A stretch of DNA of 64,000 nt from a virus (lineage: Duplodnaviria; Caudoviricetes): positions 131,572 to 195,571 of IMG/VR virus record IMGVR_UViG_3300002515_000003. One strand, written 5' to 3'. Positions 7,838 through 50,078 of the stretch are shown here, piece after piece. The translations under genes were made by a program, and so were the position numbers. The notes beneath the pieces are model-generated. The model was given only the letters and a program-made list of their open reading frames with translations. It was not told where the DNA came from and ran no database searches. Numbering within the stretch: position 1 is the stretch's first letter; each line of letters begins with the position of its first letter.

Positions 7838-10800
7838 TTAATATATTTCCCATCCATCTAAACTATTGTTAAATTCATTTTTCTTTGTCTGCCATTTGTC
7901 ATTTTCATCCTTATACTTTTTAGGTTTCTTGGACTCTGATAAGATATGAACTATATCCCCTACTATTATAGGATTTTCAGAGAATAACATATAGTCAGAT
8001 AATTTATATCTTACTTCTATACCTTTTTTAATATCATACATATTTAGATATCTAGTAGTACCACGTTTATTTTTAAACTCATCAATTTTTATTACATAGT
8101 ATAAGTCTTTAACATCTAATTGTGTTATAGGATAGCCTAAATACTCTATTTCAGCGAATAATTTATCTTTGAGAAGGATGTCTTTATCTTCTATTTTCTC
8201 TATTAGTTCTTTTATAAGACCACTTATATCAACTTCCTTATATGTTTTTGCAGTAGATTTTCCTGCGTACTTATCCATTAATGCTTCTGTTAAGCCTAAC
8301 TCTTCTAAATCTGATTTTTTAAATTGTTTTCTTGTATATAAATTAGTATAATAATCATTAATATCTAATAGTTTTTTTGACTTACCAAATTCAGAAAAGT
8401 AATCGAGTTTAATTAATGCTGTTAATTGACGTATATTTATATTAATTTTTTCAGTTATATCTTTTAATAGGTCTAAGAAATCATTATAAGTATTATCTCT
8501 TAACTTATATAGTTGATTAGCACATAATTCATTTAAGTATTTAATAGAACCTACGCCTTTATATATTATATTAGTTTCTTTATCACATTTATATTGACCT
8601 ATGGAATATCTAAATTGACAATTTTTAAGTTTAAATCCTTTGACTTTTACTAATTCTACTCCATTTGTTATGTCATCTTTAGTTTCAGCCCAATTTAAAT
8701 ACGAAGTAGTAAATTCTAATGGATGATAACATCTTAGATAAGCACAGTAATAACCATTCATAGAATATCCTGTGGAGTGATTGTATCCAAATTGATATTC
8801 TGAAGAATCTGATATAATTTGAATAAACTCTTTTGCTTCTTTTTCTGCAATTTCTCTAGGCTGAGAAGACACCTTACAATATCCTTCTAGTATTTTTGGA
8901 AGTTGTTCTTTAAGTCCTTTAATATCCTTATGTCCAATACATCTTCTAGTTGTGTCTGCATCTGAACCACTAAACCCACAAATATCTGTTAGGAATTTTA
9001 TTGTATCTTCCTGAAATATTAACCATCCTTTGTTATCCTTTAATAGTGTGTCTATTTCCTCTGATGGATTAACGTTATACTCACCACGGATTAACTTATC
9101 TCTGTAGGATTTACCCGAAGGTCTCAGCGAGGCATTCACCATCGACATATTATTGATTGTTTTACACTTGAATTGAGATATTAAGTCAAAGGCAAATTTA
9201 CTTTCAAATTGAAATAAACCTACATTACTACAGTTCATATCATTCCACACTAATTCATCGTTCCAATCCATCTTATCTGCATACTGCCAATCTTTATTTA
9301 TAAGTTTATAAGTGTCCTGTATTACACCTACAGTTTTTAATCCAAGTATATCAAATTTTACGAAATTTAAATGTTCTACAGCTTTCATAGAACAAAATGA
9401 TATAGGGAAATTCTCGTCTCCACCCTTATAATATATGCCCAAATTATCATAAAGAGTTATAGGACTTCCTATCATACCTGCTGGATGATTTCCTTTTGAA
9501 ATTATAGTTCCTTTTATTCCATCAAAATAATAAAATAATTCCTTATTGTCTTCTCTAAGTTTGTCCCAACCTTCTTTTAATTCTCTTATTCTATTCTTTT
9601 TTTCTTTATTTCTTATTATATTAGTATATATATCATAATCGTCAAAATTAGGAGATTTACTTGTAGCCTCCTCTAATTCTTCGAGATTAACTTCTTCTTG
9701 AATTATTTTAGAATATTCTTCAAATATACTATCAAAGCTATTTTTTATTGTTTTAACAAAACCTATGTCATCATATTTTAATCCTTTTGAAAGCACATCA
9801 ATACTTCCTCTATCTTGTATGGTGCTTAAAGACAATATGTATGATACATTTTTATTTCCAAATCTATCTATTATGTATTGATAAACTTTTTTTCTATCTG
9901 AGGGAGCGAAATCAGCGTCTATGTCGGCAAGAGACACTCTATCTGCGTTACAAAACCTTGAAAATACTGTATGCCACACTATAGGGTCTACATCTGTTAT
10001 GTCTGTTATATATGCTATTAAACTACCTCCCACTGAACCTCTACATGGGGATGAGTGTATTTTATTTTCTCTACACCAAGTCATTAACTCTGACATAAAC
10101 ATCATAAAGCTACCCATCTTTTGACCACTCATAGCTTTATATTCTTCGTTTATTTTCTGCTTATATTCTTTTATTTTGCTTTTATCTATAATATGTTTAT
10201 CTAGTTTCTCTTTTAACTTATTTTTAATAAGAGTCTTCCATTGCTCATTTTCATTATCTCCATAAAGAGTAGGATATTTAAATGTTTTATCTAATGTGAA
10301 TTCTTCTACCATATCAGCAAATTTGTTTGTATTATCAATAGCTTCCATATATACTTCTTTTGGTAAAGCGTCTTGATTTTCATAACTTTTAATTAATTCA
10401 TCATAGTTTTTCCAAGTTAAGTCAAAAGCATCTTCATCACCATAAAAACTTTCTTTGGCTATTTGAAGTATTTTTCTACATTCAGCCTTATAAGCAGTTG
10501 ATGAATGAGTGTCTGTCCCAGAAATCAATGGAATGTTGTATTCTTTAGACCATTTATATAGTTGTTTATTAAATTCAATTTGATGGATATGGTTATGATA
10601 TTGTATTTCTAAAAAACACCTATCATTATTTTTAGATAACCATGCTAATAATTCATTTCTTTTTTCTATATTATAATCGTATAATTCTTTTCCATCTTCT
10701 TTTTCTAGAATCTCTTTATCACTAAGCCTCCATAGAGGAGAAGATATACAAGCAGTTGTAATTATAATATTCACACTAGTATTCATTAACTCTTCAAAAG

Positions 10801-11182
10801 ATATTCTAGGGTTATAATACATATGTCTATCAGTTTTATCTTCTTTTATTCCTTTAGAAGTAGATAAAGCCATCAAAGTGTTGAGTTCCTTAACTCCTTC
10901 CCAATTCTTAGCATATAAACCTATATGCCATCCTCTGATATTGTCCTTTAAATTAATACATAAATAAAGCTCAACGCCATGTATATATTTTATATTATTT
11001 TTATCGCAAGATTGTTTCTTTTTTACCCAATCATATATTCCTCCATGATTACTAAATGCAATAGCTTTCATATTACATTTTTTAGCTAATTGAATATATT
11101 CATCAAATTTAGTACATGAGTCGGCATATCCATTACAATTTGATGTATCGTCATGTAAATGTTGCACCACATAGTTATCCAT
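7838..11182 (-). CDS. dnaE: DNA polymerase III alpha subunit (phage DnaE)
   Basis: PHP domain (HLH, TDTH), RGSVGGSL, ADIDADF, KFDILGL, FQFES, YQFGYNHS. Confidence 0.95.
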   Translation of the reverse strand: MDNYVVQHLHDDTSNCNGYADSCTKFDEYIQLAKKCNMKAIAFSNHGGIYDWVKKKQSCDKNNIKYIHGVELYLCINLKDNIRGWHIGLYAKNWEGVKELNTLMALSTSKGIKEDKTDRHMYYNPRISFEELMNTSVNIIITTACISSPLWRLSDKEILEKEDGKELYDYNIEKRNELLAWLSKNNDRCFLEIQYHNHIHQIEFNKQLYKWSKEYNIPLISGTDTHSSTAYKAECRKILQIAKESFYGDEDAFDLTWKNYDELIKSYENQDALPKEVYMEAIDNTNKFADMVEEFTLDKTFKYPTLYGDNENEQWKTLIKNKLKEKLDKHIIDKSKIKEYKQKINEEYKAMSGQKMGSFMMFMSELMTWCRENKIHSSPCRGSVGGSLIAYITDITDVDPIVWHTVFSRFCNADRVSLADIDADFAPSDRKKVYQYIIDRFGNKNVSYILSLSTIQDRGSIDVLSKGLKYDDIGFVKTIKNSFDSIFEEYSKIIQEEVNLEELEEATSKSPNFDDYDIYTNIIRNKEKKNRIRELKEGWDKLREDNKELFYYFDGIKGTIISKGNHPAGMIGSPITLYDNLGIYYKGGDENFPISFCSMKAVEHLNFVKFDILGLKTVGVIQDTYKLINKDWQYADKMDWNDELVWNDMNCSNVGLFQFESKFAFDLISQFKCKTINNMSMVNASLRPSGKSYRDKLIRGEYNVNPSEEIDTLLKDNKGWLIFQEDTIKFLTDICGFSGSDADTTRRCIGHKDIKGLKEQLPKILEGYCKVSSQPREIAEKEAKEFIQIISDSSEYQFGYNHSTGYSMNGYYCAYLRCYHPLEFTTSYLNWAETKDDITNGVELVKVKGFKLKNCQFRYSIGQYKCDKETNIIYKGVGSIKYLNELCANQLYKLRDNTYNDFLDLLKDITEKININIRQLTALIKLDYFSEFGKSKKLLDINDYYTNLYTRKQFKKSDLEELGLTEALMDKYAGKSTAKTYKEVDISGLIKELIEKIEDKDILLKDKLFAEIEYLGYPITQLDVKDLYYVIKIDEFKNKRGTTRYLNMYDIKKGIEVRYKLSDYMLFSENPIIVGDIVHILSESKKPKKYKDENDKWQTKKNEFNNSLDGWEIY

Positions 11183-38464: not shown

Positions 38465-38960
38465 TATTGTCTCCTTTTTATTATATTATTTTCTAAATTC
38501 TTTTAGTGATTTATTATATTATTATATTGACTGTAGTTGATGAAAATTTATTGTTTTTGTTTAATTTATGTTTTTATATTATTATGCATATGTTTAACAA
38601 AATGTTGTATTGTTAGAATAACATAGTTAATTATGGAAAGCAAGGAATATTTTAAATATTTAATTTGTTTTTATTATTTTATTATGATGTAATTGCTAAT
38701 TCTGTTGGGATTGGGATTATTGGTAATGGTAAATATAATTGAGTCGGAATAGGCAATGTTATATGTAATTATCACTTCTTGACCAATCTATCCATCCATT
38801 TTCCTTTTTTGGTAAAACCTCGTAATACACTTCTCTCATTATTAATAATTCTCCTTCTCTTTTTATATTTTATATATTTTTTAATTGATAGCATATTAAT
38901 GCCCCATTTCATAAATATTATTTTGTATTATTATCATTATATATGTAAACCAAAGCAGAT

Positions 38961-39941
38961 TTATTCTTCTGCTTTAGGATTGACCAAATAATAATTAATC
39001 ATTAGGTTATTGTAATTTTTTACATTTTCATTTGCTTCAAATTGAACTTGTTTAAAATCTTCAACCTCGAGTTTTCCTTTTTCAACTTCAATTGCTTTTA
39101 GTTTATTTAATTTTGCACTCATAAATACATCACCAATACTTAAATTAGAATAACCTGCATCAACAAGTAATTTTTTAGCTCTTGAGCATATTGACTGTTT
39201 ACTAAGAAAGTCATCACCATTAACTGTTGTCGGACGGCAAATATAATCTGACGATTTTAGGTTCGCAGTAATTCTATCTCCAAATCCTGCTTTTCCTCTC
39301 CTGTAATATATATCTTCTCCCCATGCTGTATTTATTACATCAATTACTCTTCTAGGAAGTTCTACCTCTCTTACTGAACCATCCTTTTCAGTTAATTTAA
39401 CACAATTTGTAATTTCATTAATATCGGATTTAGTAAGATTTTGAATTTCATTTGTACTTACAAGAAAATACGATAATATTATTGTAACGAAATCTTGATA
39501 GTTATTGCCTACGTCTTCCATAGCCCAAACTTGTTCTTCACTTAGAAATTTTGTGGGCAAGTGTAACGCATTTAACATAGGCATGATGTGTTGATTAAAT
39601 TTTACTAATTTCCAACTATTTATCATTGTTTCATTATAACCTTCTGCTGTACTCCATGATGAGTAGAGAGTGCAAATCGTGTAAAAAGCCCTGAGAGAAC
39701 TGTAACTATCTGTAAAGTTATCAGAGCAACAGTCCATTACTTCTTCTCTGGTAAAATTTGACATATCTTTGTTTATCTTTTTTTCCCAACGTGAGCCGTT
39801 AATTAAAAACACACAATAACTAGTCCTGCTGTGGTCTTCTTCTAAATAATCTTGTAAAAACTTTTCTTTTGTTTTTCGATTGTATAATTTTTCTAATAAA
39901 TTTTCACTAACTTCCATTGGTGTTTTCTCTATAATATCCAT
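38961..39941 (-). CDS. degenerate integrase-fold protein, MrpR/YopR-like lytic repressor
   Basis: About 325 aa; WEKKINKDMSNF SAM-like domain, NYQD...EIQNL; lacks the catalytic R/HxxR set; directly after a YopQ-like gene as in SPbeta. Confidence 0.7.
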   Translation of the reverse strand: MDIIEKTPMEVSENLLEKLYNRKTKEKFLQDYLEEDHSRTSYCVFLINGSRWEKKINKDMSNFTREEVMDCCSDNFTDSYSSLRAFYTICTLYSSWSTAEGYNETMINSWKLVKFNQHIMPMLNALHLPTKFLSEEQVWAMEDVGNNYQDFVTIILSYFLVSTNEIQNLTKSDINEITNCVKLTEKDGSVREVELPRRVIDVINTAWGEDIYYRRGKAGFGDRITANLKSSDYICRPTTVNGDDFLSKQSICSRAKKLLVDAGYSNLSIGDVFMSAKLNKLKAIEVEKGKLEVEDFKQVQFEANENVKNYNNLMINYYLVNPKAEE

Positions 39942-39943
39942 TT

Positions 39944-41410
39944 TTATTCCTCTCCTTTTTCAATATCATGCAATTCTACTATCTTTTTAAAATAATCAAA
40001 AATCACACGTAAACTTTTAGGATTTTTCTTGTACATTTCCATCTCTCTCCAATTTTCATGCGTTTTATCTAAATTTAATTCGCCACTTCTAATCATATCT
40101 TTTATAATTCTTTTTACTTCTTTATTATCTCTACCTAATAATTCTTTCGATAAAGCAACATATCCTACGAAAACATTATAATTTAAGGCAATACTTTCTT
40201 TCCTTAACGCTTTTAAATCAGTGTAATCATATTTTTTTAAATATTCCCCTATTACAGTATCAAACACAGTCGAGAAAGTTTCTAGATAATCGTCATTTCT
40301 TGCCGATATACTCAAATCTATATCTGCTATTTTCAAAGCACTATTAAGAATTCCATAAGTAGTATATTTAGTATTATCTCCAATTTCATCTATAGTATTA
40401 GCTATTTTACCTTTCATTTCACCTGATTCGTTTAAAGCGTCAATAAATATATTATTATCATTCTTTTCTAATGTCTTACTATAATCAACGGATATCGGAT
40501 TACGTTTGAATTCTCGACTCACATACTCTTGGGCTTCACGAACTGTGAAGTTTGTTATGGAGACCATAAACCCATATTCTAATGTCTTACCACTTTCATT
40601 TGCTTTAGCCACTGCATCTGTGCAAGCCAGAATTCTATGAAATCCGTCAGTTATGAAAACTGTTTTTAAAATTGTTAATGTTTTTTCTTTCTCATCGTAT
40701 ATTATACCTTTTTCATTAAATTTACTTGTCTTGAGTATGTTTAGTGTGATGAGATTCGCCGTAAAATTATCATCGTATATTATTTTTCCTATCTCATCTA
40801 CACTTTTCCATGTCACGTTAGGTTGGCGTAAGAGCATACCTTTAACATTTATTATCTTAGGGTCTCTTTGCATTGCTGTATCATATCCTAGAAATCCGTT
40901 TGACATATATAAATCTATATCATAGTTTGATACAAATGGACACATATATTGATTCTTAACTTTTACAACATTTCTAAATACCATTCTATCTGTTTTAGTT
41001 TTCTTGGCATCAATATCATAATATTGTCTTATCTTTTCAATTTTATACTCAGGAAAATAATATATTGGATTAATTGATTCAACTAATTTTTGCTCTTTTA
41101 ATTTCTCTTCGCTTGACTCAAATGTACTTTTTAAAAACTCTTTTGAAACAAACTCATACAAATAAACACACCAAACTCCTAATTCACTTTCATCTAAAGT
41201 ATTTAATATTATTTGTCCTTTTAAAATCTTATCAACTTTTCTATCTACCATTTGCTTCTCTTCATATACTCCCTGCATATAATCTCTCAAGTCTTTACTA
41301 GTATTCTTCTTTGCAATTACTACAAACATATTTTCTAACAACTCTTCTATTGATTTTGTTACTTCAGTGGTTTCTTTGTTTTCTATAGTCTCACTCATAA
41401 TTATCAACAC
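39944..41410 (-). CDS. YopQ-like DndB/ParB-fold protein
   Basis: ITLNI...ITDGFHR (DGQHR-like); size and position match SPbeta yopQ. Confidence 0.7.
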   Translation of the reverse strand: MLIIMSETIENKETTEVTKSIEELLENMFVVIAKKNTSKDLRDYMQGVYEEKQMVDRKVDKILKGQIILNTLDESELGVWCVYLYEFVSKEFLKSTFESSEEKLKEQKLVESINPIYYFPEYKIEKIRQYYDIDAKKTKTDRMVFRNVVKVKNQYMCPFVSNYDIDLYMSNGFLGYDTAMQRDPKIINVKGMLLRQPNVTWKSVDEIGKIIYDDNFTANLITLNILKTSKFNEKGIIYDEKEKTLTILKTVFITDGFHRILACTDAVAKANESGKTLEYGFMVSITNFTVREAQEYVSREFKRNPISVDYSKTLEKNDNNIFIDALNESGEMKGKIANTIDEIGDNTKYTTYGILNSALKIADIDLSISARNDDYLETFSTVFDTVIGEYLKKYDYTDLKALRKESIALNYNVFVGYVALSKELLGRDNKEVKRIIKDMIRSGELNLDKTHENWREMEMYKKNPKSLRVIFDYFKKIVELHDIEKGEE

Positions 41411-41696
41411 CCCTATTTAATTTTAATTTATTATTCTAATGTCTTAAATCGTTAGACACCAAAATAAATATGTATTATTAAATCTTATCTCATTTATATT
41501 CAATAACAATAATAATATACTTTTTTCCCTAATTCCTATTAACATAATTATAATATAAATTCCTCTAAATAGCAACTTAATTTCAACATCTTAACAAAGT
41601 TTTAACAATCTTTCCCACATTTATAAGAACATTTATTCTTTAATTTAATTCTATCTAATATAATTAAACTTTAACAGGAGAACATTAACATATTTT

Positions 41697-42173
41697 TCAT
41701 TTATCTCTTAATAATTTCAACAAAATTTCATACTCTCCTGTTTTTATACATATTTCTAACAACTTTTTAATATAAAACTCGGATTTCATTGTGTTTTTAG
41801 TAAATCCGTCTAGCCTATAGCCCCATTGTTGAAATTGAAAAGTTGTATTTTTACTATTAATAAAGATATAATATCTAATCAAAAAATACAAACTTTCCAT
41901 TTTCATCCAATTACAATTTAAATTATTTGCTTTTCTTAAACTCAGTAGAATATAATTTTTAGCTTTTTCAATTTGATTTGTATTATAGTAACTTTTTATA
42001 ATTACCATTAATATCATCCATATATAATAATCGTCTTTATAGTCTTGATTTTCATTCTTTCTTAGTAATCTGTAGACTTTTTTACCTATTTTTATTGATT
42101 CTTGATAATTTTTATTTACATAAAACTCTTCAAACACTTCTTTACAAATTTTATCGGATAGTTTTTCTTCCAT
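41697..42173 (-). CDS. TPR-like helical protein, paralog of the C-terminal domain of 48345-49319
   Basis: GGGGA RBS before ATG at 42173; NKNYQESIKIG...YIWMIL...QIEKAKNYILLSL. Confidence 0.6.
   Translation of the reverse strand: MEEKLSDKICKEVFEEFYVNKNYQESIKIGKKVYRLLRKNENQDYKDDYYIWMILMVIIKSYYNTNQIEKAKNYILLSLRKANNLNCNWMKMESLYFLIRYYIFINSKNTTFQFQQWGYRLDGFTKNTMKSEFYIKKLLEICIKTGEYEILLKLLRDK
41772..41834. repeat. dispersed 63-bp element, copy 2 (inside the TPR ORF)
   Basis: ATAAAACTCGGATTTCAT, 12 nt, then AAATCCGTCTAGCCTATAGCCCCATTgTTGAAA. Confidence 0.85.
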
Positions 42174-42183
42174 ATTTATCCCC

Positions 42184-42816
42184 CTATACTGCCACACAAA
42201 CTTTTTCATTAGTATTTGTATCTACGTTCATTATATCATTATAATACACTTTATACGATTTTCCAAATTCACTACAGTATCTTTTTAATTCTGCAACTCC
42301 ATTATTATACATTCTCAATAAATCTTGATTCTGAGTAAGTTGAAAAAGTTCTTTTAACTTTTTAATTGTGAAAACTTGCTCATCTATTATCGTCATATCT
42401 ATATTTTGAACAACAATTACTTCTTTTTTTACATGAATATTTTCTTTCATTCCAAACTGAATCGCAATCGCTTTATTAACTTTTACCATTGTCTCATTTG
42501 AAAGTTTACCTATATAGTCTCCTATAAGAAACTTAGGAACATTTGTAGTTGATTCCACTTGAATTACACTATCCTTAGTTAATTTATTCATATTGTCTCT
42601 CATAATTAAAACTTGTGTAGGTAATTTACATTTGTCTGTTTTACTTGTTAAAGTACATACTTGGACATTGGGACTAAACTTATTTCCCATCTCGTTTTGA
42701 AGTATTACCGCAGGATGCTTCCCGTATTGTAAACTACTTCCCTCTATATGTGGAAAGTCTACCCAAAATATATCTCCACGTTTGATTAGTTTGTTGTTAT
42801 TCATATTTGTATTCAT
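42184..42816 (-). CDS. PemK/MazF-family protein with C-terminal helical extension
   Basis: KRGDIFWVDF, GKHPAVILQNEMGNKFSP, TLTS, LPTQV. Confidence 0.88.
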   Translation of the reverse strand: MNTNMNNNKLIKRGDIFWVDFPHIEGSSLQYGKHPAVILQNEMGNKFSPNVQVCTLTSKTDKCKLPTQVLIMRDNMNKLTKDSVIQVESTTNVPKFLIGDYIGKLSNETMVKVNKAIAIQFGMKENIHVKKEVIVVQNIDMTIIDEQVFTIKKLKELFQLTQNQDLLRMYNNGVAELKRYCSEFGKSYKVYYNDIMNVDTNTNEKVCVAV

Positions 42817-43067
42817 TTTAATTTCCCCTTTATTTTTATATTATTATTAATTTAGTTTATCCTCATTTTAATATCTTATGCAGATAATATGTTTTTGATA
42901 ACTATATTTTGCTTGTTTGTTTTATATTATCTTAATATTTGTGTGAGGTACTAATTTCTTATTCCGTTAACACTATAATAGCATACACAAATAACCTTTG
43001 TCAATGGATTTAACAAAAGTTTTTGTATTATTTTATATTTAATTTTTTAAGGGGAAATTTATAAGCT

Positions 43068-44740
43068 TTATTGTTTCTTTTCCTTACTTAAACATTTAAC
43101 TATTTCCTCAAGCTCATTCATATCACTATTCTCATACTCAAAGATATAAAAATTATTTTTAAATTGCATATTCCTATTCACGCCTTTATTCCTAATCAGA
43201 ACAATTTTACTTTCTTTAAGTAAAGAATAATCATTATCTAAAAATTTAACCATAAATTTAATTCCAATCTTATAATTATGTATTATCTTCATAAATTCTT
43301 CTAATGTTTCTATTTCAATATATTCATAATCCTTAATAGATTCTGAGTCTTCAACTTCCCATTGCCACTCAAAATTCTGTATCAAATATGGCTTATGTGT
43401 TTTCCAATATTCTATTTGTAGTCTACTTTGATTTAAATCAAATTCATTTTTATTTTTACTCATTTTATTGTATCTCCTTTAAATAATTTTATATTTTATT
43501 ATCAGAATAGTAGTTCTTATTAATATGGAAACTACTATTATCAAGCCACTATTTATATGGTATATGCTATTTCTTCTTTTCTTTTAGTTTAGCTTGACTT
43601 AATGCCGAACCTGCAAAAGTTTTAGTTACTTTGCTTGTCTTTTTACTATGTAATGCTTTTGAGGCTTTGCTTGCCACTTCCTCTAATGTTTGTTTAGTAT
43701 TTTTCTTTGTCATTATAATCATCTCCTTTATATATTATTATTTTATATTAAATTTAAACTAAATCAATACCTAATATATTAGACAACAAAACTCTTTCGT
43801 CATGTTCGGCTATATCAACATAAACTGGATAGTATTCTTTTAAATCTCTATCATTTTCAATTGCCATTCTCATATAATCTATATTTGTAAAACTTGACAC
43901 TCTTGCAAATATCTTTAGTTCATTAGAAACTATAAATAATATATCAAACTTTTCTAAGTTCTCTCTTTGGTATTTCCATATGTATTTAGCAGTATCATCA
44001 TATGTTCTAATACAGTTTTTATTATTAATTACATCTATACATTTAGCTTCATCTTCTCTTCCTTCTTCACTATAAGCACCTATTAAAAAATATTCATTCA
44101 TTATTAATTGCTCCTTCTATGATGGTCATAACCCTATATTTTATTATTTAAAGTTAATATATTGATTTTTCAACATATATTAATTTATTTATAACTTCTT
44201 CTGAAAAAACTTCTCTTAACTTCTCTTTATTTGTATTAATTAAATTAGTAATAATGTTATCTAAATTTATCTCAAATATATAATGTGCTAAATTAGGATA
44301 TTTAGTTAATATCAATACATAAGATTCGCATGTTAATCTCTTACGTAGTTCAATATCCTCTAAGATAAACAATAAATCTATTATTTCTGTAGTTATTTTA
44401 TCATACACACCAACCTCGCTTTTAGTAGGTTTTATATCTTTATTCATATATTTATCACCTCTTTTTTTATGTTATTATGTGTTTCAATTTTCCATAAAAT
44501 AATCCTTTCAGTTACTTATATTGATTCTTTATAATGTATTTCGCAAACATCTATTGCCTCATAACCTTCATCTCTTCTTGTTTCATCTAAATAACTACCT
44601 ATAGCAAGGTTATTGCAATAGTCGCACTTTAATTTAATAATATTTCCAATACTAAGTTTATGAAATTTTAAACCTTCAATATCTTCTTTAATTGACATTT
44701 TTACCATCCTCTCTAACTTTAAAATATTTAATTCCAACAT
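43068..44740 (-). CDS. small hypothetical genes, including an unlisted basic 48-aa ORF at 43567-43713
   Basis: Hand translation MTKKNTKQTLEEVASKASKALHSKKTSKVTKTFAGSALSQAK with AGGAG RBS; the other ORFs are in the track. Confidence 0.55.
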
Positions 44741-45239
44741 AATCAGTTAAATAAACACCATTCTCAGAACAATAAAATTTACATCCATCTTTTAACATTT
44801 TCTCTACATCTAATTCTAATATCACGACCTCTCCATGTCTTTTTCCTACTTTAATAGATGTTTCAATATCTTTTGATAAATGAACATATTGTCTAGAACC
44901 ATGTTTAATTCCTTCTTTAAGGATAGTATTTAAGAATCTTCTACTTGTTCCATGATATAATTCTGTAGGTGGAATAATTTCTTTAAGACTTAAATTTACT
45001 TTAATAGAATGTCCTTGGTTAGCTCTAATCATATCTCCATTTAAACTATATGAATAGCGTTGCTTATCATCCTCATTTACAATTCTATTTAAATCTATCT
45101 TTGTAATATTCATTCCTGTGATAAGATTATTTACACTTATGTAACCATTTTTATCCATAGTCAATCCTATTACTTCAGGTTTATGTCTTAAAACTAAACT
45201 TAAAAACTTACTAAATTTCATATCTCTATTATTTATCAT
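44688..45239 (-). CDS. kptA: RNA 2'-phosphotransferase (KptA/Tpt1)
   Basis: SLVLRHKP, DKQRY, IRANQGHS, LYHGT, RQYVHLS. Confidence 0.93.
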   Translation of the reverse strand: MINNRDMKFSKFLSLVLRHKPEVIGLTMDKNGYISVNNLITGMNITKIDLNRIVNEDDKQRYSYSLNGDMIRANQGHSIKVNLSLKEIIPPTELYHGTSRRFLNTILKEGIKHGSRQYVHLSKDIETSIKVGKRHGEVVILELDVEKMLKDGCKFYCSENGVYLTDYVGIKYFKVREDGKNVN

Positions 45240-45279
45240 TTTAATTCTCCTCCTTTATCTCTCAATATTTGCTACTTAT

Positions 45280-46411
45280 TTAATCTTCCTCCATATATTC
45301 TAAAAACTCTTGCTCTGAAAATCCTTTTGGATGACCTATTGAATATTCTTCTTTAGGTAAATCCATATCTAATTGTTCAATTATTTTATTTTTTATATAA
45401 CACAAATATCCTAATACTATTTCATTCTCAGAGGGTACTGCAATTATTGCTTGATTAAGCATTTCAATATCGTCACCTCTTGTTAGGAATTTAATTTCAA
45501 GGTCATGTGAATTTTCTATCATATTATTCTTCCTCTCCTTTATTACTTTATTAAATTGTCTTTTATTATCCACATATATAATCAAGTGCGGATACTTATT
45601 TACACTTTAAATTTTTCTTATTTCTTATTCATTTTCTTAAATTCCCTATTCTTATTAATCATATCCTCTAAATCTTTGTTAATAGATTCCTTTTTATCTT
45701 TATAGTAATTTTTCCTATCCTCGTCAACTCTACTTTTCATTTCTTCCCATGAAATTTTTGTGACTTCATAACATTCTTCTACAGATTTTTTAATAATGTT
45801 ACCAAAGTTTTCGACGTCTACATTTCCTTCTCCATCAGAACATTTAATGAGAATTGACATCATATCACCATATGAACTAACTGCTCTTGAATATAAATCT
45901 GTACTTAGAGATTCTTTAATTTCATTTATAGAGTCAACTAAATTATCCATATCTACAAAATCTTTAAAAGCCTTTTGAGTTGATTTTATTAATCTATCAT
46001 TTATATTTTGTTCATGTTTATTTTTATGTCTCTTCTTATTCTTCTTAATAGATATTGGTAAAGTTATTAACTTTATTACCCAATAAAATAATCCCCATCC
46101 AAGACTCTTCCCAAAATCATCAGAACTTATAAAATCCATAAGCATACAATTTATTAACGTACCTAATCCCCAATTAACTAATAATGTTATAAACATAATA
46201 AAAAGTATATTTTCTATCATTATTATTCTCCTTCTATATTATTATATTTTAAATTTTTATTATTACTATCTAATTTCCTTTTAATAACTCCTAATCCCTC
46301 GTAACTTACATTTTTTAATTTACCATCACAGTTTTTAGTTTCACAAATATTATTCTTTTCAGAGCTTGAATACCAAACTGTTTTACATTTTTCGCATCTA
46401 AATTTTTTCAT
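45280..46411 (-). CDS. hypothetical proteins (one membrane protein, one Zn ribbon)
   Basis: Co-oriented ORFs. Confidence 0.5.
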
Positions 46412-46543
46412 TTATTAATACATCTCCTTTTATTAAATTATAATATTTAATTTTATATTATTATTACCTATTGCAATTATTATATGCTTAGTTGGGAATA
46501 AATGCAATAGGTAATCGATAATATTATGTATTATTTTATTTTG

Positions 46544-47947
46544 TTATATGTATATAAATGTGAAACCTTCGTATTGTTTTTGTTTACCTCTGCACATCAA
46601 TGATACACTAGACCTCTTAAATTTTATCCCATATTTTTCTTCGGAGTCATTGCAAAGTTTTTTTATACTAATAAATGAATCTAAATATACTTTATTTTTA
46701 AATACGCTTACTTTTTTACCATTTGTTATTTTAGCATCATATTCACACCAACCTAATTCATTCCCTTTTTTAAGATACTTTGTAACAGTAACCCTAGCTA
46801 GTTTCATTAAAATTGCAATATCTTTTGTACCCCATAAGGGATTTTCTTTTTTTTAATCACATACTACCTTAACTAAATTACTCAACGCAAATTCCTCAGC
46901 TTTATTCCAATTTATCTGACTTAAATCAAAAAGGTTATTTAAAATGCTATCTTGTATATTATTCTTTATGTATTTTTGTTCTGATTTTTCACAATCAATT
47001 CTTATCATTTCAAACCCATACCTATCAGCCATATCATCCTTATAATCATCTATCATTCTAATTTCTTCTTTTGTTTGTCCATTCATTTTATTATCTTTTG
47101 TATGGAATCCTCCATCTACTTCAATTATATAATCTATATTATCTTTTTTGAAATAGAAGTCATACTTACGAGGTTTTATCCAATCAGGAATATATTCTGT
47201 AGAAAATTCTATATCCAATTGCTCTAATATAGAAAATGTAAACTTTTCAGGATATGATTTCCCATCACCACATGAACAATTCATTGAATGAACCTTATAA
47301 ATTGCATTTAATGACATTAACTTGTTTTTTACTCTTCCACAATCAGGACAAATAGGGTAAATCTTCTTATCACTTGCTTTAGAATAAGTTTTTGCAATTT
47401 CTTCACCAACAATCGGTATCATCCAAGGTGTAGTATCCCATATTGTATTAAATCCTAATACAGTTTTTTGAGGAAAAGGACAACATACAGGACACCCACA
47501 TTTTTGTGTAATAAGTGAACTTTCAACCATCCAATCTTCATAATCACATTTATTACATTTATATTTATACCATTTTTCATTTTTATTATACTTACTTTTA
47601 CCACTCTTTGTTCTATATTCTCTATTCAATATAATTAAATCCCTTTTTTCATCTTTGAATATAGTTTCAACTTTAATTTTAAAATCTCCACTTCTTAACC
47701 CCAATACAGTTCTAATATTTCCATTAACAAAAACAACTGTGTTTATTTTAATAATTTTACCTTTAATATATTCAGTAGAAAGCATATGTGTTTTTGCGTT
47801 GTAATCTACAATTTCTATTTCTCCTTCCAATCCATCATAAATAAATTTAACCCTAATCCCGATACTATTCCTCCAATCAATTACTCCACTAGGTTGACCT
47901 TTTCCGAATCTCCATCTTGGCAAATCTTCTGTAAATACTTCCCTCAA
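46544..47947 (-). pseudogene. Zn-ribbon/PD-(D/E)XK (Vsr/DUF559-like) endonuclease with one in-frame stop codon
   Basis: SYPEKF, YDFYF, IIEVDGGFH, IRIDC; TAA at 46853-46855 is followed in frame by KKENPLWGTKDIAILMKLARVTV (HTH-like). Confidence 0.7.
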
Positions 47948-48031
47948 TATTAATAATGCTCCTTCTAAATTTTATTTTCTCGTTTGGCATGTTAATCTCT
48001 CTCCTTTTTGTTTTCAATTTTATATCATTTT

Positions 48032-48066
48032 AAGTATACTCAAACCAATAATATTTGAGTATACTT
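48032..48066. promoter_or_regulatory. perfect 13-bp inverted repeat (operator or terminator)
   Basis: AAGTATACTCAAA-N9-TTTGAGTATACTT, downstream of the peptide gene. Confidence 0.6.
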
Positions 48067-48120
48067 TTCATCATGTGTGTATTACGTCAATTCCTTGTTT
48101 ATCTTAGGTATGGTATGTAC

Positions 48121-48273
48121 CTATTTTGATACTGTAGAACTTATGAAACATGATGGACTTCTCATTGCAAGCAATTTTTGACCTGCTTGTTGTGAGGTAA
48201 ACACTATACCTGCAACCACCAATACAAGACACACCATTTTCAATACTTTTTTTAATACCATTTTCTTTTTCAT
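48121..48273 (-). CDS. putative secreted signalling pro-peptide (50 aa, not in ORF track)
   Basis: AAGGAAG RBS; MKKKMVLKKVLKMVCLVLVVAGIVFTSQQAGQKLLAMRSPSCFISSTVSK: basic N-region, hydrophobic core, short polar tail. Confidence 0.75.
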   Translation of the reverse strand: MKKKMVLKKVLKMVCLVLVVAGIVFTSQQAGQKLLAMRSPSCFISSTVSK

Positions 48274-48344
48274 TCTAAATCAACTTCCTTTTGATATATA
48301 TTTAAAATATCTGTTTTTAGGCAGATATCTCATTGCCATTTATA

Positions 48345-49319
48345 TCAAATACACAAGGCTTCTATTTCATCCTCCATTGCATTGATAATTTCTTCTTTAT
48401 ATTTAGCACAATTGTGAACCGTCATGTCAGTAACTACAACCGTTTTTGTTATATTACATATACTTTTCATACGATTCTTATTTAATTTCATAGATGCTAC
48501 AGAAAATATGCATTGTAATCTTAAAATTGTCTCATTTTCATTTTTGTAATGATGACTGAGGGAAGTATAAATTTTTGAAGCATCATTTATTTCTCCCATA
48601 GATTCATAGGTGTTGGCTAAATTCCACATAGAAATACTATAATTATGGCTAAACTTTTCAGGGTCTGAAATATGACTAAGAGCTTCTTGAATTTTAATCA
48701 GTGCTAATTCTTTATTTCCCAATCCTAAATTTGCAGTAGCTTGAATATATAAGCTATACCAAATAAATTCCAGTCTTTTTGCAATTTTAGACTTAGTAGA
48801 CAATTCATGCAGTTCTAGAGCAAGTGAAATCGCTTTTTTGTATTCTCTATTGTGGTCACATGCATATACTCTAGACCTTAAATTTTCTAATTTGACTTTA
48901 TCATTATCAACTTTAGTGTTATCTAAAAACAAGTTTTCTAAATCTAGAGCATTAAAATTATTACTTGAAAGGTCTAATTGTTTCTCTATAGCATTTTGTA
49001 TTTCTATTTGGTCTTTTATGTTTGTAATTTTATCTACAAAGGATAATACATCAGCTTTGTCGATTGTTAAAATCTGATTACACATCAGTTTCGAACTTTT
49101 GTCAAGATTATATGTTTCTTTTAAATCAATATGAGTATCTAAATACTTAACTAAATTTGAGGTCAAAGGTATAACGTTGACACTGCCACCTACACGAATG
49201 TTTGTTCTCCATTGAGAAATTATGACAGCTGGGTGTTTCCCATTAATGACACTTTTACAATTATTTTTAAAATCACAAATCCATATATCAAATCTATATA
49301 TATTCTTCTTCTTTGCCAT
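48345..49319 (-). CDS. PemK/MazF domain fused to a TPR-like domain
   Basis: N-terminal DIWICDF, GKHPAVIIS, VIPLTS, QILTIDK; C-terminal TPR helices (ATANLGLGNKELAL, WNLANTYESMGEINDASKIY). Confidence 0.8.
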   Translation of the reverse strand: MAKKKNIYRFDIWICDFKNNCKSVINGKHPAVIISQWRTNIRVGGSVNVIPLTSNLVKYLDTHIDLKETYNLDKSSKLMCNQILTIDKADVLSFVDKITNIKDQIEIQNAIEKQLDLSSNNFNALDLENLFLDNTKVDNDKVKLENLRSRVYACDHNREYKKAISLALELHELSTKSKIAKRLEFIWYSLYIQATANLGLGNKELALIKIQEALSHISDPEKFSHNYSISMWNLANTYESMGEINDASKIYTSLSHHYKNENETILRLQCIFSVASMKLNKNRMKSICNITKTVVVTDMTVHNCAKYKEEIINAMEDEIEALCI

Positions 49320-49440
49320 TTAGTAAACACCCCTTGTATATTCAGGCATCGCCCGATAATTTTTGTTTATAAGTTACTGCATTGCATGTAACTTTTTGAT
49401 TCTTATATATTTCTATATTCAACCATTCCATTTCATTCTA

Positions 49441-49911
49441 TTATACTAATTGCAAACTATAAACCAATAAATCTTTATCCATCATAGTTTCATTTTTAAT
49501 TATTGGCTCTTCGTCCTCATTTCCAAACCATATATTAAACATATACACAAATTCTTGTTTAAAGTCTTGTACTATTGTTGTTAAACAATATTCCCCTAAG
49601 TTACATTTTATAATGTCTAATCCTCTGTCGTTCACATCTTCCATTAAGCTTTCATATAATTTATTCTTTTCTTTTGATATTAAAATGTATTCCATTATTT
49701 CTCCAATATCTTCCACTGATTCTTGATTGTTAGTGTTATCTACCCACATTACCACTCCTTCCGTTGTTTGGATTAAAGATTTTATAGGTTCATTACCTTT
49801 GCATACTTCAAAATTTAAGTCTGCTACTGTAACCATCCTTCCTAATCCGTTCTCATTTATCTCATTGTTTTTATCAATGAATACATTTTTGTACATTAAT
49901 AATTCCCCCAT
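49441..49911 (-). CDS. hypothetical protein, paralog of 50331-50744
   Basis: MYKNVFIDK...ADL...CKGNE...EGVVMW...ESVEDIGEIMEYI. Confidence 0.6.
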   Translation of the reverse strand: MGELLMYKNVFIDKNNEINENGLGRMVTVADLNFEVCKGNEPIKSLIQTTEGVVMWVDNTNNQESVEDIGEIMEYILISKEKNKLYESLMEDVNDRGLDIIKCNLGEYCLTTIVQDFKQEFVYMFNIWFGNEDEEPIIKNETMMDKDLLVYSLQLV

Positions 49912-50078
49912 TCATTATTATTATAGAAAGTAAATTTTTTAAATTACTATTATAATAATGAATTTATTAGGAGGTATTCTTCCAATTTGTTTCCATAAAT
50001 TCCTCCTTGTTTTATTCAATTTTCAATTAACATTTGTGCTAATATGTTGTTTGTCTTGTTTCCTTATCTGTTAAATTA

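Follow-up and report, generated by a model that had tools for sequence, protein, structure and literature searches.

A PemK/MazF-family gene followed at once by a gene for a small helical-repeat protein forms a conserved pair in a large phage. We propose, with moderate confidence, that the second protein is an inhibitor or regulator of the first within a lysis-lysogeny control region. The pair lies in the last 64 kb of a 195,571-bp IMG/VR virus record (IMGVR_UViG_3300002515_000003). This whole 64,000-nucleotide stretch, called the window here, has a G+C content of about 26% and carries nearly all of its genes on the minus strand, including every feature of the window located below. Gene A (42184-42816) encodes the 210-amino-acid (aa) PemK/MazF-family protein, gene B (41697-42173) encodes a 158-aa helical-repeat protein resembling tetratricopeptide repeat (TPR) domains, and a third gene, C (48345-49319), encodes a fused PemK + TPR protein. 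An earlier reading of this DNA (the original prediction) took A and B to be a second, split copy of C.

Domain structure of A and B

The PemK domain of A (residues 12 to 121; 42454-42783) matches Pfam PF02452 (PemK_toxin) along the entire profile (positions 1 to 109 of 109), with an E value of 1.2e-22 and 80.6 bits against a cut-off of 23.1 bits. Further, phrog_1936, annotated as a "MazF-like growth inhibitor," matches residues 5 to 174 (E = 1.6e-26), and the closest solved relatives are Staphylococcus aureus MazF (E = 2.2e-19, residues 9 to 130 of A) and Bacillus subtilis EndoA (about 3e-17), with values ranging to 4e-17. The rest of A is a conserved helical C-terminal extension of about 85 residues (125 to 210; 42187-42444), kept in six relatives and in CST027 of phage c-st. 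The extension has no Pfam or family match, and a PDB sequence search with it gave nothing below an E value of 0.06. Among 5.8 billion proteins, searched at near lengths only, its two matches were itself and one 72%-identical relative. In the ESM Atlas model of A this region resembles a helical hairpin in a generic way (template modeling [TM] score of about 0.5), which we treat as a lead only.

Gene B begins with an ATG at 42173, preceded by a GGGGG ribosome site and located 10 nucleotides (nt) past the TAG of A. A start at 42209, giving a 170-aa frame that overlaps A, was rejected because 42173 has the ribosome site and the N termini of the family agree. B itself opens with MEEKLSD, and MEE or MEG is found at the N terminus of all 16 family members (eight proteins among the 5.8 billion at near lengths, six representatives, and two derived from the loci compared below). 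As the original prediction had stated, the PemK gene is directly followed by a helical protein.

An AlphaFold2 model of B built on an eight-sequence alignment is all-helical, with a mean predicted local distance difference test (pLDDT) score of 81.7 and a predicted TM score of 0.79. Its seven helices (residues 5-19, 23-38, 45-64, 68-84, 88-109, 130-145, and 149-156) form a TPR-like arrangement of about 3.5 repeats from residue 5 through residue 156. The top Foldseek matches in the PDB are the TPR domains of LGN/Pins, RapF/H/I, Rap of pLS20 and phi3T, and Sec72. Against the LGN, Rap, and Sec72 domains, TM scores by query are 0.60 to 0.68 with a root mean square deviation of 2.5 to 3 Å over about 140 residues, but the E values are 0.01 or weaker. 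ESM Atlas neighbors of B are TPR clusters, again as a lead only. An exhaustive search of 1.84 billion representatives with the B profile returned eight proteins; six are family members and two are long TPR-repeat proteins, matched in four and six stretches at E values of 5.4e-5 and 2.0e-4. We are confident in the TPR-like fold that the model predicts.

No Pfam family reaches threshold for B, the best being TPR_2 (E = 0.59) in one of eight family members, and a PDB sequence search with the B profile gave nothing below an E value of 0.06. B has no match in phage records by tblastn, and none of 154 pattern matches for its family in species-representative genomes was confirmed. No DNA-binding or effector domain is present in B; the candidate effector, PemK, is the separate gene A.

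Conservation of the A-B pair

We compared the window with four further loci, L003 to L006 (L006 is partial), and with G001, a related phage of 180,693 bp. At all five loci, each readable on the upstream side, an extended PemK protein of 200 to 226 aa ends 10 to 41 nt upstream of a B homolog, and this conserved pairing is a reason to see A and B as likely partners. Downstream of B, a protein of the 488-aa type described below is present at each of the four loci readable there, followed by an integrase-fold protein at two of two.

A putative sigma-70-like promoter of the A-B operon (TTGACA, 18 nt, TG-TATTAT; 42975-43004), identified by consensus match, is the top site of the scan, with 11 of 12 hexamer positions matched and an extended -10 element. 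L003 and L004 share this promoter region, with TTGAC and the AAGGGGAAATTAAA ribosome site among the conserved parts. For 38800-43600, the prediction gave no intrinsic terminator. Upstream of this promoter lies a gene for a 131-aa protein without a known family (43068-43463), which is kept in L004 (2686-3078); a different protein of 153 aa takes its place in L003.

The window phage and G001 each carry both the A-B pair and the fused form, about 5 to 6 kb apart, and these proteins are only about 36 to 50% identical between the two phages. The C homolog of G001 (315 aa, 36% identity to C, E = 9e-64) lies about 5.3 kb upstream of the pair. It was found through a PF02452 search; a pattern search of viral contigs for the C family missed it and yielded no confirmed member. 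The fused PemK + TPR architecture is present in four of four C-type proteins. The original prediction had argued that split and fused versions reflect a real functional link between the two domains, and the pair at every locus, the four fusions, and the presence of both forms in two diverged phages strengthen that argument.

G001 has three PemK genes in all: the A homolog followed by B, the C homolog, and a canonical PemK. The last (116 aa, L018:1247-1836) matches PF02452 at an E value of 2.7e-5, below the cut-off, and has a 75-aa open reading frame (ORF) with an acidic WFEDDDE tail directly upstream. The three PemK-type genes of G001 thus have three different partner arrangements.

Phage c-st shows a similar layout with a different partner. 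Its extended MazF-like protein CST027 (220 aa, 26.5% identical to A over residues 11 to 202) is followed by one gene and then by the YopQ homolog CST029 and the YopR homolog CST030. In the slot of B, c-st has CST028, a non-TPR protein of 218 aa that shows no relationship to B (hhalign E = 0.28) and has no Pfam family. Because this slot is filled by an unrelated protein, the arrangement resembles the partner swapping typical of toxin-antitoxin pairs. Further, c-st differs in that CST027 keeps the catalytic arginine and is the single PemK gene, with no C-type fusion.

B is our candidate antitoxin because there is no other candidate near A. On the coding strand, no ORF of at least 40 aa lies within 250 bp upstream of A. 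MazE (PF04014) has no match in the 195,571-bp genome, and the only ribbon-helix-helix (RHH) match in the genome is subthreshold (16.4 bits) and about 113 kb away. Pfam and PADLOC scans place B in no antitoxin family. A complex prediction with two copies of A and one of B, using their own alignments and no controls, gave run scores of 0.78, 0.00, and 0.00, which speak neither for nor against binding.

Relationship of the pair to the fused gene C

C comprises a PemK part (residues 9 to 114; 48978-49295; Pfam PemK E = 6.8e-17) and a TPR part (residues 139 to 321; 48357-48905; SNAP E = 5.4e-5, with weak TPR_2 and TPR_12 matches). In an AlphaFold2 model of C, the block of residues 139 to 321 has pLDDT values of mostly 70 to 96. 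Values for the PemK part are below 50 because the alignment had three rows. Foldseek matches of the TPR part are BtubC, Sec72, Rap of pLS20, LGN, and KLC, a set that overlaps the one for B.

Between A and C, the PemK domains show clear homology in sequence (29% identity and E = 1e-5 by BLASTP; profile E = 9.9e-17 over 116 columns). For the TPR parts, BLASTP of B against C finds no similarity (best E = 0.72, in the wrong region), a hidden Markov model of the B family detects only B in the phage's own genome at an E value of 1 or below, and the search of 1.84 billion representatives retrieves no C-family protein at 0.001 or below. By hhalign, the E value for B against the TPR part of C is 0.027 with 8 against 3 sequences and 0.0043 with 16 against 3. 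Adding the 36%-identical C homolog from G001 as a fourth sequence to the C profile gives 1.7e-4 to 2.8e-4 (16 against 4) over 108 columns, aligning residues 18 to 147 of B with residues 155 to 263 of C at a probability of 41 to 50%. The register is the same at all profile depths and is the one originally drawn by eye, with NKNYQESIKIG on NREYKKAISLA and YIWMILM on FIWYSLY. None of 100 column-shuffled decoys reached the B-C score in either round (maxima of 23.0 against 25.5 to 26.0 and of 20.1 against 33.0), and a reversed C profile scores 15.7 against B.

These scores are not specific to C. The unrelated TPR protein P0019 scores 36.1 against B, versus 33.0 for C, and C ranks third of the 58 other window ORFs as a single-sequence target of B. 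The similarity between B and C therefore appears to exceed chance, but at the level of the TPR superfamily. Both B and the TPR part of C are TPR-like and probably distantly homologous, and the comparisons lend no support to their being each other's closest relatives. What stands of the original alignment is its register and its superiority to decoys; the particular kinship it was taken to indicate is not supported.

Residues 125 to 210 of A match neither C (hhalign E = 0.45) nor B (E = 0.28). The idea that this extension is the missing piece between the PemK and TPR parts of C was ruled out on the former value. In a 14-row PemK tree, from which the partial L006 row was left out, a clade of A and C is neither recovered nor rejected (approximately unbiased test, p = 0.149). 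Since the kinship of B and C is remote and at the TPR level, and since the extension of A has no counterpart in C, describing A-B as a split copy of the fused module goes too far. It is fair to speak of one two-domain theme carried by two chains.

A histidine at the catalytic arginine position

His34 of A (42715-42717) aligns with the catalytic arginine of MazF, with GKHP in A facing GVRP (GGVRP) of S. aureus MazF, and residue 29 of C is a histidine at the same position. In a 15-row alignment, histidine occupies the site in all eight members of the A and C families that cover it. Arginine is kept in all six other phage MazF proteins (CST027 of c-st, Lagaffe, a Coprococcus phage, LpeD, PMBT24, and a Staphylococcus record). 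The position of the Thr/Ser catalytic partner is retained. Histidine for arginine is a shared derived feature, and the sole derived character that links A and C. In the MazF proteins of B. subtilis and Bacillus cereus, Arg25 and Thr48 are reported as the key catalytic residues, and mutation of Arg25 inactivates the enzymes or severely reduces their activity; Mycobacterium tuberculosis MazF4 is described as having lysine at this site (PMC7354611).

Setting beside SPbeta repressor homologs

The most informative context of the A-B pair is the YopQ/YopR-type genes directly downstream. The first (39944-41410) encodes a 488-aa YopQ/SroE homolog (phrog_5732, E = 7.8e-48) that has 24% identity to SPBc2 yopQ by tblastn (E = 8e-16, 75% coverage). 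The same kind of search finds it in 35 phage records, all of them SPbeta-like or allied Bacillus, Geobacillus, Psychrobacillus, Staphylococcus, and Mammaliicoccus phages. The second (38961-39941) encodes a 326-aa YopR/MrpR/SroF-like integrase-fold protein, a candidate master repressor, supported by Pfam MrpR_N_CB (35.1 bits, cut-off 27) and phrog_5830 (E = 4.1e-29). BLASTP aligns it with SPbeta YopR at 21% identity over 238 residues (E = 2e-5). A reading of these downstream genes as a ParB/resolvase plasmid-maintenance module was replaced by the YopQ/YopR homology.

In SPbeta, yopMNOPQR ends with SroE and SroF, and aimR (yopK) and aimP (yopL) lie upstream of these two; SroF is reported to be the master repressor and SroE a second repressor (10.1101/2025.11.27.690993). 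YopQ/SroE and YopR/MrpR/SroF homologs occur here in a clostridial-type 196-kb phage of 26% G+C and also in c-st (CST029 and CST030), and the SPbeta-type repressor system appears to reach well past Bacillus phages.

The spacer between B and the YopQ-like gene holds a promoter-like element (TTGCTA, 17 nt, TATAAT; 41547-41575; a 10-of-12 scan match). The window, L003, and L004 all keep TTGCTATTT...TATATTATAAT and the GTATATTATT after it, and L006 does so in part. The larger block GGGAAAG.TTGTTAAAA...TTGCTATTT...TATATTATAAT...GTATATTATTAT (41547-41620), upstream of the YopQ-like gene, is conserved in four loci and likely comprises the promoter plus operator of the repressor genes. This suggests that the YopQ/YopR-like genes have their own promoter; with this conserved element in the spacer, A-B may be transcribed separately from the repressor genes.

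In phi3T, host MazF activity is reported to settle the choice of lysis or lysogeny and to promote lysogeny, tuned by AimX, YosL, and phi3T_93; small phage proteins bind host MazE and MazF, with phi3T_93 binding MazE (PMC10769878). MazF is said to spare the sro operon (10.1101/2025.11.27.690993), and UACAU is given as the B. subtilis MazF site (10.1101/2023.04.27.537455). Using this borrowed motif post hoc, we counted one UACAU in A, B, and the YopQ-like and YopR-like genes against about six expected (Poisson, 0.015), a depletion that ranks fourth of 230 four-gene runs. As support for phi3T-like sparing, this is suggestive at best.

Open reading frames downstream of B and C

Directly after C is a 50-aa ORF (48121-48273) with a signal-peptide-like N terminus and a ribosome site, AAAGGAAG, before its ATG. 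The C homolog of G001 has an ORF with a similar hydrophobic N terminus at the same position (L017:645-785, minus strand). The ORFs after C in the two phages are about 47 to 50 aa long, with Lys-rich, hydrophobic, signal-peptide-like N termini. The two peptides give no BLASTP alignment, and they share an RSP motif by eye only. C together with the following ORF has an RRNPP-style receptor/propeptide layout, in which a nuclease-type domain replaces the helix-turn-helix (HTH) domain.

No such gene follows B, in agreement with the original prediction. The 286-bp spacer holds a single ORF, of 43 aa with a TTG start, which lies over the conserved promoter, and L003 and L004 have no conserved small ORF at this place. 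Similarly, a search downstream of B in the window, L003, and L004 found no conserved ORF of at least 20 aa with a signal-like N terminus.

The phage and other neighboring genes

We propose that the phage carrying A-B is a large clostridial-type temperate phage or phage-plasmid. A DnaE-type DNA polymerase III alpha subunit (7838-11182) has 66% identity at 88% coverage to those of Clostridioides phages LIBA6276 and LIBA2945, a match that provides our best clue to the kinship and likely host group of the phage. Megablast found no near-identical DNA for 38900-50000 in collections of phages and plasmids. The region between the two PemK modules includes a gene for an RNA 2'-phosphotransferase of the Tpt1/KptA family (44688-45239; PF01885, E = 3.1e-51), an RNA-repair-type enzyme near two putative RNases.

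Discussion

The usual partner of a MazF toxin is a small antitoxin of the MazE type encoded upstream. In the arrangement that we favor, A and B would instead form a two-gene operon in toxin-first order, in which A is a MazF/PemK-family endoribonuclease-type protein with histidine in place of the general acid/base arginine and with an additional C-terminal helical hairpin. The TPR-like B, translated from a start 10 nt downstream, would bind A and restrain it as an antitoxin-like inhibitor or regulator. The cassette would be part of the lysis-lysogeny control region; it occupies the place that sroA-D have in SPbeta, with the YopQ/SroE and YopR/SroF homologs directly downstream. Regulated release of A activity would lead to cleavage of transcripts, which might favor lysogeny, as host MazF does for phi3T, or might stabilize a prophage or plasmid. 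In C, a single chain unites the same two elements, PemK and TPR, and would be coupled to a gene for a secreted peptide.

A direct link between PemK and TPR elements is argued by domain-fusion logic, since every C-type protein is a fusion and B is colinear with the TPR part of C. The co-occurrence of A-B and C modules in two diverged phages is a reason to favor the inhibitor or regulator proposal. A role in lysogeny is suggested by the YopQ/YopR homologs immediately downstream together with the phi3T MazF parallel.

Several observations weigh against this proposal. Binding of A by B is something that we infer. A TPR-like antitoxin for MazF and the toxin-first order are both untypical of mazEF/pemIK, B is without a DNA-binding domain for autoregulation, and PADLOC matched none of five proteins, A, B, and C included. 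The extension of A could be its own regulatory element. Because histidine replaces the catalytic arginine in all eight members, A may be weak or inactive and need no antitoxin. The apparent own promoter of the YopQ-like gene seems to leave co-regulation with A-B as conjecture. Faecalibacterium phage Lagaffe has an extended MazF without such a partner, and the TPR comparisons in which C did not stand out from other proteins also count here.

The alternative to which we give most room, though we think it unlikely, is that A and B are mere neighbors. B would then be an adaptor or anti-repressor-type regulator of the YopQ/YopR-like repressors or of host factors, and control of A would fall to its own extension or to an antitoxin of the MazE type from the host. 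The pair is placed as the small regulatory genes sroA-D are in SPbeta, c-st retains the extension even though it has no B, and the binding of host MazE and MazF by small phi3T proteins (PMC10769878) is in line with such an arrangement. The close spacing at all five loci, the strict co-occurrence of B with extended PemK, and the PemK-TPR fusion in cis in C argue instead for a direct relationship. We consider it somewhat more doubtful still that B is a split-off sensor, the orphan receptor of the original prediction, whose TPR groove binds a peptide or other ligand, maybe the product of the ORF after C, and switches A in trans, making A-B a two-chain version of C. This would fit the PemK + TPR architecture shared with C, the colinear profile alignment, the signal-peptide-type ORF after both C and its G001 homolog, the presence of both modules in two phages, and the fact that the models of B and C match the same Rap/RRNPP-type and LGN TPR structures. 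However, no peptide ORF follows B at the three loci checked, and B, with its 3.5 or so repeats, is small next to the matched Rap-type receptors (chains of about 360 to 380 residues). Further, the similarity of B to C is TPR-generic, C lacks the extension of A, and in c-st the slot is filled by a non-TPR protein.

The histidine raises a different explanation, the least probable of those we weighed: A, and C with it, might be catalytically crippled MazF decoys that bind a host MazE-type antitoxin or RNA and so free host MazF, with B modulating the decoy. The occurrence of histidine in every family member that covers the site speaks for it. Histidine can take the general acid/base role in other RNases, however, and the Thr/Ser partner residue is retained while the remaining RNA-binding core is strongly conserved. 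Loss of activity on Arg25 mutation in B. subtilis and B. cereus MazF would again favor a decoy, but M. tuberculosis MazF4 is reported to function with lysine at the site (PMC7354611). There is also a precedent for titrating MazE in phi3T_93 (PMC10769878).

Compared with MazEF/PemIK (Kis-Kid), the pair is alike in the full PF02452 domain of A, the retained Thr/Ser partner, and the two-gene operon with a small partner. It differs in that B is downstream rather than upstream and is a TPR-like repeat protein rather than an AbrB- or RHH-type MazE, with no DNA-binding domain, and in that A has histidine for the catalytic arginine and an extra 85-residue helical extension. The resemblance to the arbitrium/sro region of SPbeta and phi3T (aimR-aimP-aimX and sroABCDEF, with host MazEF as effector) lies in the YopQ/SroE and YopR/SroF homologs directly downstream, in the TPR protein C with its signal-peptide ORF a few kb upstream, a layout like yopK-yopL...yopM-R, and in the involvement of a MazF-family RNase. 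Here, in contrast, the phage itself carries the MazF-like gene, with the TPR element fused to it in C and next to it in A-B; C is without the HTH domain of AimR, no AimX/YosL-type MazE mimic was identified, and sroA-D homologs were not found in the A-B position. RRNPP receptors (Rap, AimR, PlcR, PrgX, and NprR) share the TPR fold, with Rap proteins near the top of the structural matches for B as well as for C, and C has a cognate-looking propeptide gene. B differs from them in its 158 aa and about 3.5 repeats and in lacking both a propeptide gene and an effector or HTH domain; two defining features are thus absent. At the level of titles and abstracts, we found no literature on a TPR-type MazF partner, on RRNPP-like receptors fused to PemK, or on the MazF/YopQ/YopR neighborhood of c-st, and supplementary arbitrium/RRNPP catalogues might list PemK-fused receptors.

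A wider and more speculative idea, which we hold improbable, is that these phages have made the arbitrium-MazF logic of phi3T internal. Their TPR modules would act directly as gates on MazF-like RNases that the phage encodes, in cis by a secreted peptide for C and in trans beside YopQ/YopR for A-B, with the histidine site tuned for regulated, nonlethal cleavage. In phi3T, by contrast, the TPR receptor controls transcription of a MazF inhibitor. If the idea is true, cell-cell signaling would reach the lysis-lysogeny decision at the post-transcriptional level, by way of a peptide-gated ribonuclease.

A MazF-family gene with a downstream TPR-like protein as its only plausible partner would add a new partner class, and the cis-fused C with its secreted-peptide gene offers a natural clue to how a TPR partner might work. 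The Arg-to-His change common to A and C raises a simple biochemical question about MazF catalysis. Equally important is the position of the pair beside homologs of the SPbeta master repressors, in phages that are relatives of the c-st group. Only recently was host MazF reported as the effector of arbitrium signaling in phi3T (PMC10769878), and with a phage-encoded MazF in this region the connection of RNA cleavage to the lysis-lysogeny decision could be tested in a second phage lineage, distant from the first.

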